Shown here: positions 11,909 through 28,970 of the stretch, in pieces | Layout: every line of letters starts with the position of its first letter | How positions within the stretch are numbered: the first letter of the stretch is position 1 | Assembly (NCBI GenBank): GCA_963737655.1 | Contig: CAVTTN010000002.1 | Location: 5,632,001 to 5,696,000 of the forward strand | Direction of reading: 5' to 3' | Source of the DNA: an uncultured Planctomycetota bacterium | GTDB lineage: Bacteria; Planctomycetota; Planctomycetia; Isosphaerales; Isosphaeraceae | Length of the DNA stretch: 64,000 nt | Program-made: the position numbers and the translations under genes | Notes under the pieces: model-generated | Seen by the model: the letters and a program-made list of their open reading frames with translations, nothing else | Told to the model about the DNA's origin: nothing | The model's database searches: none

Positions 11909-11936
11909 GGTCGGTCGGTCGGTCGGTCGGTCGGTC
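11909..11936. repeat. (GGTC)7 simple sequence repeat in the fumC leader
   Basis: Seven perfect GGTC copies counted directly. Confidence 0.9.
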
Positions 11937-24246: not shown

Positions 24247-24670
24247 CGACAAGGCCCCGGGGGACTGAACCGGCCGCGTCGCTCGCTCGCTCGGTGTCTG
24301 CGCTGGCTGATCCGGGGATTGTCCCGCGCCCGGGCCTGCGAAGCAAGCCACCGGAATCCCGGCGGATCGAAGCCGCTCGATCGGCCTCGCCGGACCTCGG
24401 CGATCGGCGGGTTTCCTCGACGGCCATCGGCCGATCGGCCCCGGATCGCGGGGCGATCGGAGGCCGACGCGCCGGACCGGGGGGAGCCGCCCCGATCGGC
24501 CCGGTCGCCTTCGGGCTTTCGGGAAGCCGGGCCCTTGCGGGCCCATGACTCCATGCGGCAGAATACGGACGGCCGGACGGGTCGCCTCCTCCCGATGAGA
24601 GGGGCCCGTGCGGCCGGCCCTTCCTTTCGATCCGTCCCCGGACCCGCCGCCCCCGCGTGGAACCTCGTCG

Positions 24671-25384
24671 ATGGAAAAGAAACCGCCCAGCGGGATGAAC
24701 ATCCCGAAGATCATTGACACCTTCGGCTACGTCATCTACGGAGCCCTGGCCTTGCTGGCCATCTGGGGTGTGTACAACTCGGTCCTGCTGTACCGGAACC
24801 TGGGGAAGAAGGGTCTCAAGAATGACGAGGCCGCCAGCCTGATCGGCCAGATCCGCGAGCTGACGTCCAAGAACCGCTTCCAGGAGGCCATCGAGGCGTG
24901 CTCGGGCCCGCACTACTGGCACTCCGCCCTGGCCCAATTGATCGCCGTGGCCCTGCGGGTCCGCGACAAGGGGCTGGCGAAGGTCAAGCAGGTCCTCGTG
25001 ATGGAGTTCCACACCGAGGTCATCGCGGCGATGGAGAACCGCCTGGCGTCGATCTCCACGATCGTCCGCATGGGCCCCCTGCTCGGGCTGCTCGGCACGG
25101 TCGCTTCCATGATCGGGGCGTTCGGCCGGATCGGCGGCGGCGAGAAGGTCGACCCCAAGGCCCTCGCCGCCGACATCTCGCTGGCCTTGTGGGCCACCGG
25201 CTCCGGCCTGCTGATCGCCACCCCGATGATGATCGTCGGCAACGACATCCACGCCAAGCTCCGGCACCTCCGAGACATGACCGAACGCCAGCTCGGCGAC
25301 TTCATGGAACTCCTCGAACAGATCGAGGCCCAGGGCGGGCGCGCCTCGGCCCGGCCGGAGAAATCGCGGGCGGTGCTTCGGTGA
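24671..25384 (+). CDS. exbB: MotA/TolQ/ExbB proton channel family protein
   Basis: GPLLGLLGTVASMIGAF and ISLALWATGSGLLIATP TM motifs. Confidence 0.9.
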   Translation: MEKKPPSGMNIPKIIDTFGYVIYGALALLAIWGVYNSVLLYRNLGKKGLKNDEAASLIGQIRELTSKNRFQEAIEACSGPHYWHSALAQLIAVALRVRDKGLAKVKQVLVMEFHTEVIAAMENRLASISTIVRMGPLLGLLGTVASMIGAFGRIGGGEKVDPKALAADISLALWATGSGLLIATPMMIVGNDIHAKLRHLRDMTERQLGDFMELLEQIEAQGGRASARPEKSRAVLR

Positions 25385-25510
25385 GTTGTCAGTTGTCAGT
25401 TGTCAGTTGTCAGTTGTCAGTTGTCAGTTGTCAGTTGTCAGTTGTCAGTTGTCAGTTGTCAGTTGTCAGTTGTCAGTTGTCAGTTGTCAGTTGTCAGTTG
25501 TCAGTTGTCA
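25385..25510 (+). repeat. Tandem heptamer array (GTTGTCA)18
   Basis: 126 bp, 18 perfect units, starting on the base after the exbB TGA. Confidence 0.97.
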
Positions 25511-25544
25511 TGGGGGGCGGTCGGCTTGGTCCTGGCCTGACATT

Positions 25545-25925
25545 ATGCAAGATTTCCGCGATTTGAATGTCTGGCAGAAGGCCCACCGCCTCACCCTTGC
25601 TGTTTATGAGATCACCGGGCGATTCCCTCGCGAGGAACGCTTCGGTCTGGCGAGTCAGATGCGCCGAGCTTCGACTTCGATACCTTCGAACATCGCGGAA
25701 GGTTGCGGGCGTGGCACCGGAGCGGATTTTGGTCGATTCCTTCAGATCGCGATGGGTTCCGCCTGCGAGTTAGAGTACCAGGCACTCCTCGCATTCGACC
25801 TGGGGATGATCGAGAGCGATGCCTATCAAGTCGTTCAGCGGCTTCTCGCGGAAATCAAGCGAATGCTCGTGTCGCTCATCCAAAGGGTGAAGACAGGTTT
25901 CAGAAACAAACATTTGGAATCCTGA
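25545..25925 (+). CDS. Four-helix-bundle protein (23S rRNA intervening-sequence protein / bAvd-like family)
   Basis: FRDLNVWQKAH..L..VY..T..FPREERFGLASQMRRASTSIPSNIAEG.GR....F.RFL.IA.GS..ELEYQ; visibly AT-richer than its flanks. Confidence 0.93.
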   Translation: MQDFRDLNVWQKAHRLTLAVYEITGRFPREERFGLASQMRRASTSIPSNIAEGCGRGTGADFGRFLQIAMGSACELEYQALLAFDLGMIESDAYQVVQRLLAEIKRMLVSLIQRVKTGFRNKHLES

Positions 25926-25977
25926 GACTGAAACGGGCCCTTCGTCGACTCTTGCAAGAGGGAACCGAGAAATTCCT

Positions 25978-26068
25978 AACTGACAACTGACAACTGACAA
26001 CTGACAACTGACAACTGACAACTGACAACTGACAACTGACAACTGACAACTGACAACTGACAACTGAC
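25978..26068 (-). repeat. Tandem heptamer array (AACTGAC)13, reverse complement of the 25385 array
   Basis: 91 bp, 13 units; ends 18 bp before the exbD ATG. Confidence 0.97.
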
Positions 26069-26086
26069 GAGCCCGCGAGGCATCCG

Positions 26087-26515
26087 ATGCTATTCCAACG
26101 CCAGGCCAGCGAAGAACGCGACGAACATATCGACTTGACGCCGATGGTCGATGTCGTGTTCCAGCTCATGACGTTCATGCTCTTCTCGATCCAGTTGACC
26201 GGCAGCGAGCTGAACGTCCCGCCGGCGAAGCATGGGGTGGGCCTGACCGACGAGGGCACTCAGCAGGTCTGGTTGATGCGGCCGACGGTCCCGGGGGGCG
26301 AGTCGCGGTTGATCGTCGGCGACGCCCCGGACGGCCCCAGCATCACCCAGGACCAGTTGAAGAAGGCGATTGCCGCCGGAGTGGCCCAGGGCCTCAAGAA
26401 CGTCGTCCTCCAAGCCGACGGCGACGTCCCCCACGGCGACGTCCTCAAGACGCTCTCGACCATCAAGGAAGTCGAGAACGTCTCGGCCAGCATCGGCGTC
26501 CAGGAGCCGGATTGA
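26087..26515 (+). CDS. exbD: ExbD/TolR family protein
   Basis: IDLTPMVDVVFQLMTFML; VVLQADGDVPHGDV. Confidence 0.88.
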   Translation: MLFQRQASEERDEHIDLTPMVDVVFQLMTFMLFSIQLTGSELNVPPAKHGVGLTDEGTQQVWLMRPTVPGGESRLIVGDAPDGPSITQDQLKKAIAAGVAQGLKNVVLQADGDVPHGDVLKTLSTIKEVENVSASIGVQEPD

Positions 26516-26577
26516 TCCGCGTCATCCGATCCCCAGACCATTGACCACCGATCACCGATAACTTCAGGACCCTCGCC

Positions 26578-27656
26578 GTGGCCAACTGGGACATCTTCCA
26601 CAGCGACCGGCTCGAAGTGGAGCGGAACCTGAGCTCCGAGCAGGTCCGCGACGGCCAGTCCCGGGCGCGATCCGCCCGGACGACCTCGCCCGGCCCGCCG
26701 GGACGCAGGACCCCTGGGTCCGCCTCTCCGAGATCGCCGACCTCGACGCGATGGCCGAGGCCGAGGCGCCGGCCTCGGCCGAGGCGGCGCGGTCGGTCCA
26801 TGACCAGAGCGGCGAGGACGTCGTCGAGATCGACGACCTCAGCGCGTTCCTCATCGACGACGAGCAAGGCGAGGCCGCCCCGCTCGTCCCGCCGAAGAAG
26901 CCCTCGGCCGGCGGCGTCCCCCTGCCCTCCGGCGTCCGCAAGGGCACCACCGAGGACGTCGATCCGACCGGCTTCCCCGACAGCTACGACCGCGACCTCG
27001 ACCTCGACTTCCGATCCGACGCCGCCAAGGTCAACCTCGACGGCGACAACGGCGACGAGGACGAGTACGACCCCGGCGCCGAGGACGAGGAGGCCGCCGA
27101 GTTCACCTTCACCCGAGGCGGGGCCGAGACCGTCGAGGAGTTGGACCTCGCCGCCATGGTCGACGTCGCCTTCCAGCTCGTCCTCTTCTTCCTCGTCACG
27201 GCCTCCACCGTCGTCTTCAAGACCCTGGAGGTCCCCAGGCCCAATCCCGAGGAGAAGGAGAAGGGGACCTCGGTCCAGAGCAGCAACAGCACCAAGACGA
27301 TCGACGACATGGCCAAGGACAACATCCTGGTGGACATCTCCCCCACCGGCGAGGTGAAGGTCAATCGCGAGAACGCCCCGAACGACTTCAACGGCCTGGT
27401 CGCGCGCCTCAAGAAGATCAAGACCGACACCGGGATGACCGGCATGCTCCTGACGGCCGACCCCACCACGGCCCACAAGCACTCCGTCCTCGCGTATGAC
27501 GCCGCCAACGAGCTGGCCCTCCGCATCACCCTCGCCCAGGTCAAGTCCAAGGCCGCCGACAAGTCGGCCGTCCCCCCCGGCGCCGCAGAAGGGGAAGTGA
27601 GCGAAGATCGATCCGCCCCGCCCGCCGACGGCGCGGATCGGATCGTGTTCTCCTGA
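26578..27656 (+). CDS. ExbD/TolR family protein with N-terminal GYF_2-like domain and acidic linker (frameshift near 26665)
   Basis: MANWDIFHSDRLEVERNLSSEQVRD../RGAIRPDDLARPAGTQDPWVRLSEI; LDLAAMVDVAFQLVLFFLVT; LLTADP. Confidence 0.75.

Positions 27657-27916: not shown

Positions 27917-28970
<1,054 letters not shown>

Follow-up and report, generated by a model that had tools for sequence, protein, structure and literature searches.

Four-helix-bundle genes between inverted heptamer arrays at bacterial operon junctions point to a little-described selfish element

Results and discussion

In the genome of an uncultured bacterium of the Isosphaeraceae (Planctomycetota), a four-helix-bundle gene lies between two exact, mutually inverted heptamer arrays at the junction of an ExbB-family and an ExbD-family gene. 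We analyzed this locus within a window of 64,000 nucleotides (assembly GCA_963737655.1, contig CAVTTN010000002.1, forward-strand positions 5,632,001 to 5,696,000; feature positions below are those of the window) and compared it with related genomes, plasmids and homologous loci. The cassette is an optional unit. Such units are found mostly at operon junctions, in the direction of the host genes, and their left arm adjoins the stop codon of the upstream gene. The same junction has been occupied by unrelated members, and a given site can be found with the full cassette, with an ORF-less hairpin, with a half-deleted copy or empty, the ends lying at direct repeats of 0-5 bp. The architecture is real and not an artefact, is unexplained in the literature searched, and points to a little-described selfish element. 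On balance, and with modest confidence, we favor a selfish, promoterless cassette of ~690 bp whose pentameric protein binds its own arms and aids spread via an enzyme acting in trans.

The arrangement links three open items, namely the very large S23p/PF05635 protein family, the origin of ORF-bearing intervening sequences (IVSs) in rRNA and the excess of 7-base repeats in bacteria. Cassettes of this kind may also explain the 7-base repeats that are scattered through many bacterial genomes. A literature search that excluded supplements gave no paper linking the S23p gene and heptamer arrays as a class.

Architecture of the cassette locus

The upstream host gene (24671..25384, + strand) belongs to the MotA/TolQ/ExbB family (PF01618, E=3.5e-20), and its TGA overlaps the first, degenerate repeat unit of the left arm. 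The array proper, (GTTGTCA)18, occupies 25385..25510 (+), beginning on the base after this TGA, and reads as UUGUCAG repeats in the mRNA; TRF sets the start one base earlier, at the A of the stop. A leader of 34 bp (25511..25544, +) is followed by the four-helix-bundle gene of 126 aa (25545..25925, +; ATG at 25545), a member of PF05635/TIGR02436 (S23p, IVS protein), and a trailer of 52 bp (25926..25977, +) by the right arm, (AACTGAC)13, at 25978..26068 (+), the reverse complement of the left arm. Both arrays are exact base for base (TRF: 100% matches). Rotating the reverse complement of the left-arm unit yields the right-arm unit, so that the arrays pair perfectly in register, and in the predicted fold the arms close a 91-bp perfect stem (duplex -176 kcal/mol) with the ORF inside. 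The array copy numbers are those of the assembly, which may hold indel errors, because an ExbD-like gene downstream changes frame.

Between the right array and the ATG at 26087 of the ExbD/TolR-family gene (26087..26515, +; PF02472, E=5e-13) lies a spacer of 18 bp with a GAGG ribosome-binding-like motif (26069..26086, +). This spacer is probably the host's own; by eye, an 8-base word of it recurs in the spacer of L002, a same-genus relative whose junction is empty. An earlier sequence-only reading had described the layout of arrays and ORF exactly, and its remark that the ORF is AT-richer agrees with a GC content of ~0.57-0.59 over the ORF versus 0.65-0.75 in the flanks. Its term exbB-exbD operon applies at the family level: the flanking genes match the Pfam families MotA_ExbB and ExbD but fall below the NCBIfam exbB/tolQ/tolR equivalog cut-offs, so that 'exbB-exbD' is a family label here and not an equivalog assignment.

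Inside the cassette no second ORF was found, and an Rfam search returned two chance-level microRNA matches only. No sigma-70-like promoter was detected in 24400-26700, so that expression of the cassette would come from the host operon; a sense-strand terminator-like site was not found either. The genome holds candidates for a reverse transcriptase (RT; three matches), a Y1 transposase (six matches) and RNase III (an RNase III-family gene), all of them outside the window.

Elsewhere in the window, the second ExbD-like gene (26578-27656) changes frame near 26660-26750, and a MoxR-like ATPase gene (27917-28970) seems to shift frame too, possibly through long-read indel errors. A perfect tetramer run, (GGTC)7, is present at 11909-11936.

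The protein family and its fold

The ORF matches TIGR02436 (E=5e-39, 133 bits versus a cut-off of 24) and PF05635 (E=1e-39, 135 bits versus 33.8). Besides PF05635/bAvd-like models no family was matched, including no catalytic one, which bears out the earlier statement that this single-ORF unit carries no transposase. An AlphaFold2 model built from 70 sequences shows four helices (pLDDT 93) and is closest to Xcc0516 (2GSC; TM 0.89, rmsd 1.1), with BT_0352 matched too; the family structures 2GSC and 2RLD contain five chains each. Avd is a weaker match to the predicted model (TM 0.70-0.76; 4DWL TM 0.75) at 16-18% identity, and the Avd families remain below cut-off for the protein (37.5 versus 80 bits). 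The fold in common with Avd, which the sequence-only reading had stated for the family, is thus recovered in the predicted model.

The closest homologues of the protein (63% and 61% identical) come from Acidobacteriota records and are followed by homologues from many phyla. A close relative of the exact cassette was not found, the best homologues being 63-65% identical. The ORF is under purifying selection, with dN/dS of 0.05-0.17 in 11/13 pairs and saturation in the other two. Published accounts of the family mention 18 genes inside cas loci (PMC3936711), occurrences in 16S and 23S insertions of CPR bacteria (10.1101/2024.02.27.582315) and strain-specific copies (PMC8700078). In our loci L049 and L069, open frames of ~570 aa begin with the four-helix-bundle domain and continue into the next gene by fusion or readthrough.

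Inverted heptamer arms are a family trait

The survey of the family comprised 184 hits in 226 loci, 154 of which were complete, non-redundant and had flanks. Both arms were periodic at 7 in 99/154 loci, at 8 in four and at 6 in one, while control windows 500 bp away gave 0/138 at period 7. The proposed tie between this protein family and inverted arrays is thus supported. With metagenome and plasmid loci added, 139/240 showed period 7, only 27/69 metagenome loci passing the two-arm threshold. Upstream and downstream units agreed at 6-7 of 7 bases in 75/99 comparisons within loci versus 4.5% across loci, and unit similarity grows with protein identity. The left arm starts a median of 2 nt from the upstream stop (52/88 within -15..+10), and the right arm ends a median of 18 nt ahead of the next start. 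Both neighbours are co-oriented with the cassette at 76/108 armed loci as scored by a crude caller and at 55/68 high-GC loci; counter-oriented cassettes number 13/108 and 5/68, respectively. The hugging of stop codons may reflect the survival of harmless insertions instead of targeting.

Several loci depart from this pattern. In L050, L055, L058 and L051 the arms look to be of period 8 (e.g. GGGGTCGA, GGGGACAA) or period 6, and the 8-mer proteins of L055 and L058 are sisters on the tree; these loci offer a natural comparison of repeat length with protein. In one clade (L040, L041, L042, L133 and L139) both members of the repeat pair seem to be located upstream of the ORF, with no downstream arm, in at least two cases right after tRNA-like sequence. 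Three 99%-identical Nannocystaceae copies (L155, L158 and L198) at different sites of one MAG were considered as 5'-truncated retro-copies, an interpretation that we rejected. Two of them are 5'-truncated, and one ends in short inverted repeats and is bounded by a 9-bp duplication; given these ends and the duplication, the copies are likely passengers in an IS-like element and were excluded from the evidence.

A correspondence between protein residues and repeat bases was sought as well. Mutual information on 88 units gave clade-level signals only. Among 57 independent pairs from 129 units, residues 67 and 109 were associated with unit position 5 (p near 1e-4), but neither association held once the pairs were stratified by their divergence (best family-wise p=0.15), and predictions from these residues in a leave-cluster-out test only equalled the baseline (0.50 vs 0.50); such a code was not supported. 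What hint remains is that Thr at residue 109 is paired with C at unit position 5 in 25/25. The near-invariant G of the unit (125/129) is partly a product of the phasing rule, which favors G; unsupervised phasing gave 0.94 (88 units).

These data bear on a very improbable explanation, in which the arms are a passive by-product. Slippage-prone heptamers would grow at any short inverted repeat, the gene would be an ordinary mobile passenger, and its association with the repeats would be inherited history with no protein-repeat interaction. Such an origin would agree with the private variants common to the two arms within a locus, with arm GC, which tracks host GC (rho 0.40, n=135) and thereby suggests that most unit positions may drift, and with homologues that ride other elements without a left arm, such as the Nannocystaceae copies; slippage has also been proposed for heptamer excess (cited in PMC4692102). 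It is at odds, however, with a period and polarity that are fixed across many phyla, with the change of period to 8 or 6 in particular protein lineages, with the absence of period 7 from all 138 controls, and with the same design in the Coxiella rRNA IVS.

Repeated occupation of the exbB-exbD junction

An ExbB orthologue was found in 108/121 family genomes and PF05635 in 62/121, with 1-8 copies; among the matches listed, three genomes have the PF05635 gene directly behind exbB. The 41 orthologous junctions examined comprised 32 with a plain spacer (18-234 bp, median 69.5 bp), three with a cassette, two with a heptamer remnant, two with another insert and two ambiguous cases. The unit is thus a discrete, optional cassette, as the sequence-only reading had supposed. 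The three junction cassettes (G000, the source genome, G012 and G103) have the units GTTGTCA, GCAATGA and GGATGAC and start 0, 0 and ~8 bases past the stop, and the other two proteins are 40-44% identical to that of the source genome. The three proteins fall into three supported groups, and a single clade was rejected by an AU test (p=3e-5) on a quick LG+G4 tree of 40 of the 184 proteins then available, picked to cover clades; two of the three already stood apart on a 154-protein tree before this test. With three cassettes that are unrelated to one another, the exbB-exbD junction speaks for repeated insertion at preferred sites.

Further junctions are reused, and at one of them a single clade was likewise rejected (p=3e-6). 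For example, six genomes (L032, L048, L060, L141, L142 and L145) have cassettes with proteins of at least two clades at one junction, where the downstream gene starts MIYLDNAATSFP; we take this gene to be cysteine-desulfurase-like.

Two same-genus relatives with an ExbB match have no cassette at the junction, and neither tested array was found in any of three same-genus relatives. Even in the closest empty relative, ExbB identity reaches only 84%. A putative 3-bp TGA duplication at the cassette ends fits the related cassettes. Besides that, unrelated inserts of 697 bp, 351 bp and a REP-like stretch were observed at the exbB-exbD junction in L097, L102 and L095.

Filled and empty alleles on plasmids

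Matches to the gene were found in 24 plasmid records, nearly all cyanobacterial and 13 of them on plasmids predicted to be conjugative, and in none of 50,697 phage records. One cassette of Trichormus/Scytonema is absent from seven records at 98-99% identity. In two empty records examined, the 428-bp unit is cleanly missing between flanks that are 99.1% identical; in the filled state its ends carry the 5-bp direct repeat GTAAT, which contains the upstream TAA. More distant relatives have an ORF-less hairpin (Brasilonema) or a half-deleted copy (Nostoc C052) at this site. Since a single site is seen full, ORF-less, half-deleted and empty, gene-less hairpins and cassettes are states of one thing. 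As the distant relatives carry remnants, the empty alleles at this cleanest site may be precise losses, and the direction of change may be either way.

Similarly, an operon junction of Nostoc plasmids showed five filled, five empty and two otherwise changed alleles among 12. In one filled allele the ORF is 78% identical to those of its neighbours versus 89-96% for the flanking genes, and the next junction in the same operon has an unrelated cassette in 1/10. Exact direct repeats at related cassettes measure 5, 3, 3, 2, 1 and 0 bp (0-3 bp at the Nostoc operon ends), and one insert carries ~35 extra bases; such variable ends are unlike the work of a dedicated transposase. As foreseen from the planctomycete locus, related cassettes on cyanobacterial plasmids do have empty sites, with short direct repeats at the stop codon. 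In Nostoc N6, a gene-less heptamer hairpin of 182 bp sits within a cassette ORF and interrupts it, without a clear duplication. Near-identical filled and empty alleles, e.g. Trichormus variabilis ATCC 29413 plasmid C versus Nostoc PCC 7120 plasmid beta, make the system testable in culturable cyanobacteria. A Pseudanabaena plasmid cassette lies between cas6 and cas4 (L309:1285-1966) and has an extra gene-less hairpin upstream of the ORF.

The sequence-only reading, which is supported in part overall, had also named observations that would speak against it, and in the three parts open to computation the opposite was found: the cassette is not fixed and syntenic across the family, empty sites exist, and homologues are associated with inverted arrays.

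Dispersed arrays and gene-less arm pairs

The source assembly, which is 88% complete, contains two PF05635 genes. The second cassette (L053; contig C2, 1242161-1242837), with its gene at C2:1242288-1242629, has AGTGGGC arms and a protein 48% identical to the first, and its unit makes up most of the dispersed arrays of the genome. On contig C2, 53 AGT/ACT arrays of at least four units have period 7, while periods 5, 6, 8, 9 and 10 yielded no such array, so that the arrays at period 7 are not due to chance. A relaxed arm search of the genome gave 34 left-type and 36 right-type arms, 29 of these being lone arms. Within 700 bp, 20 pairs are in left-right order and none is reversed; two enclose the PF05635 genes and 18 are gene-less. 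As scored with a home-made gene caller, 18/20 pairs lie between co-directional genes versus a background of 1976/3274 gaps of at least 100 bp (60%).

The gene-less loops have purine-rich starts and pyrimidine-rich ends. They do not appear to be recent copies, since 16/18 are single-copy in the genome and their similarity to cassettes is limited to the arms. Variant units are often common to the left and right arms of one locus and private to it. This suggests arm-to-arm copying in DNA by template switching, so that a perfect stem alone is no proof of selection at the RNA level. Of the individual pairs, one with GTTGTCA arms (G000:C2:1225147-1225453) encloses a REP-like inverted doublet (49 genome matches) and lengthens its stem. 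In two further loci (L335:599-1110 and L336:504-909), AGTGGGC arms surround 250-400 bp without a gene, one stretch being AT-rich and the other containing 24-bp tandem repeats.

Searching 121 genomes for two array patterns gave 19 that carry one of them; PF05635 is present in 18/19 of these versus 62/121 overall (Fisher p=2e-5, overstated as kin are not independent). Several array-bearing genomes have an array away from any detected PF05635 gene, and the array-rich genome G105 (77% complete) gave no PF05635 match. One might read the protein as a host-useful regulator: by binding to the heptamer arrays dispersed among mRNA leaders, it would adjust the translation or decay of numerous operons, following the network idea of MacGregor (2015); the arms of its own gene would then be autoregulatory, and passively spread copies would be kept by host selection. 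Purifying selection on the ORF, the arrays hugging stop and start codons of co-directional genes, the concentration of arrays in gene-bearing genomes and the Beggiatoaceae TAACTGA arrays, which end just upstream of start codons (PMC4679880), all agree with this. We nevertheless regard it as quite unlikely in view of the very patchy distribution of the gene, the unrelated clades at one junction, the clean and frequent loss in near-identical plasmids, the unsupported specificity code and the same-genus relatives that have neither the cassette at the junction nor either tested array.

A selfish cassette and its possible route of spread

A conserved ORF in a patchy and easily lost unit suggests a selfish element's own factor. 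In the explanation that we favor, the cassette would be expressed from the host transcript, in which pairing of its arms could give a long hairpin open to RNase III cleavage. Such a cut would split the mRNA between two intact genes and therefore, as with rRNA IVSs, be of little cost to the host. The protein may be an Avd-like pentamer on unpaired 7-mers, with one repeat per subunit crevice; its candidate ligand would thus be written on both sides of its own gene. The lack of a catalytic match, together with a fold relative that is an RNA-binding pentamer beside an RT, suggests a non-catalytic protein that binds the repeats and serves as adaptor for an enzyme, provided in trans, that does the copying and joining. 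The length and perfection of the arms would result from slippage and from template switching between the arms, and loss of the ORF would leave behind the hairpins without a gene and the lone arrays that are scattered over the genome. Several points stand against this explanation: no RT or transposase is linked to the cassettes seen, the direct repeats vary, the gene-less loops are not recent copies, counter-oriented cassettes occur, most metagenome homologues fall short of the two-arm threshold, the residue-to-base code is unsupported, the array-rich genome G105 gave no PF05635 match, and the protein of the Coxiella IVS is probably not made.

As to the route, we tentatively consider that the excised RNA, held by the pentamer, is reverse-transcribed by a resident RT and joined by microhomology at a stop/start junction, which is possible but on the whole doubtful. 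A route through single-stranded DNA hairpins is about as likely. This alternative has the selfish core in common and differs in the intermediate: the cassette would move as single-stranded DNA during lagging-strand synthesis, conjugation or transformation, its arms would fold, and the hairpin would be held by the pentamer and joined at short homologies, either by illegitimate recombination or by a host or HUH-type enzyme acting in trans, RNA folding being a side effect. Counter-oriented copies, the plasmid records with their predicted conjugative members, the ORF-less hairpin inside the Nostoc N6 cassette ORF, and, in the source genome, the arm pair around a REP-like doublet and the six Y1 transposase matches fit well with DNA movement. 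On the other hand, Avd, the characterised fold relative considered, binds RNA beside an RT, co-orientation dominates, no transposase is linked and the ends are not conserved across the family; we rate the DNA route, taken as the full explanation, as rather improbable.

A bolder version of the favored explanation is unlikely. It would make the cassettes a transposase-free class of mobile elements that targets stop codons by a new mobility mechanism, in which an RNase III-excised hairpin is bound by an Avd-like ring on five 7-nt repeats, copied by an RT in trans and joined at another termination site. If true, ORF-bearing rRNA IVSs would be its insertions into rRNA, Avd a domesticated protein and heptamer repeats decay products of one element.

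Comparison with known systems

The closest parallel is the S23p IVS in the 23S rRNA of Coxiella burnetii (PMC4990558, where Leptospira and others are cited). Cassette and IVS have in common the protein family, the sense orientation in the host transcript, the ORF in the loop of a terminal stem, a similar size (428-444 nt) and tandem heptamers on the 5' side; in Coxiella, RNase III cleaves the IVS there, at the first repeat (PMC4990558). The parallel with IVSs drawn by the sequence-only reading is thereby closer than claimed, as tandem heptamers are part of the Coxiella IVS itself. The Coxiella unit GACAGAT also surrounds one of our homologues (L048). Unlike the rRNA IVS, the cassette lies between two protein genes and not in rRNA, its arms are pure arrays of 18 and 13 units, and its predicted stem of 91 bp compares with 28 bp in Coxiella; as in an IVS, terminal inverted repeats close a stem around a sense ORF. 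The excised Coxiella IVS is described as quickly degraded and its protein as probably not made (PMC4990558), whereas the ORF of the cassette is conserved and not decaying; IVS-like cleavage of the cassette is putative.

In the Avd pentamer, five protomers are reported to bind an RNA stem-loop with bases in crevices, next to the RT (10.1101/2023.10.23.563531). The cassette protein has the same fold as the Avd of DGRs (PDB 4DWL, 8UB7/8/B/E) in the predicted model. In contrast to a DGR, the identity to Avd is low, the Avd score is below cut-offs, and neither the cassette, its immediate surroundings nor the rest of the window contains an RT.

As no transposase is encoded, the cassette is not an autonomous insertion sequence. 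RAYT/REPIN and IS/MITE pairs consist of one or two gene-bearing copies with inverted repeats and many gene-less intergenic hairpins. The cassettes resemble them in having few gene-bearing copies and many gene-less hairpins with matching arms. They differ in that the gene is no transposase, the gene-less loops are unique (16/18 single-copy) instead of many near-identical copies, and the target-site duplication among related cassettes is not of fixed length (0-5 bp). The core of integron attC sites is GTTRRRY; the left arm begins with GTT, yet the units of the family are varied.

Dispersed heptamer repeats also include the STRR and LSSR of cyanobacteria. TAACTGA repeats in Beggiatoaceae (PMC4679880) and GGGAATC in Xanthomonas and GGGGA(C/T)T in Nostoc (PMC4692102) are described as dispersed heptamers near start and stop codons with inverted pairs, and the stem of the Nostoc trnL intron contains 7-nt P6b motifs (PMC4476775). 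Like the cassette arms, these repeats are 7-nt, intergenic, near stop or start codons, often in inverted pairs and of variable copy number. The right-arm unit, read as CAACTGA, is one base from the Beggiatoaceae TAACTGA, and the P6b class II motif NNTGAGT matches GCTGAGT arrays of the source genome. The main texts of PMC4679880 and PMC4692102, as far as covered here, mention no four-helix-bundle gene with the repeats, and their supplements could hold gene lists. Altogether, the cassette is no IS, MITE or DGR by these tests and no IVS by location, and it may work like an ORF-bearing IVS in an mRNA.
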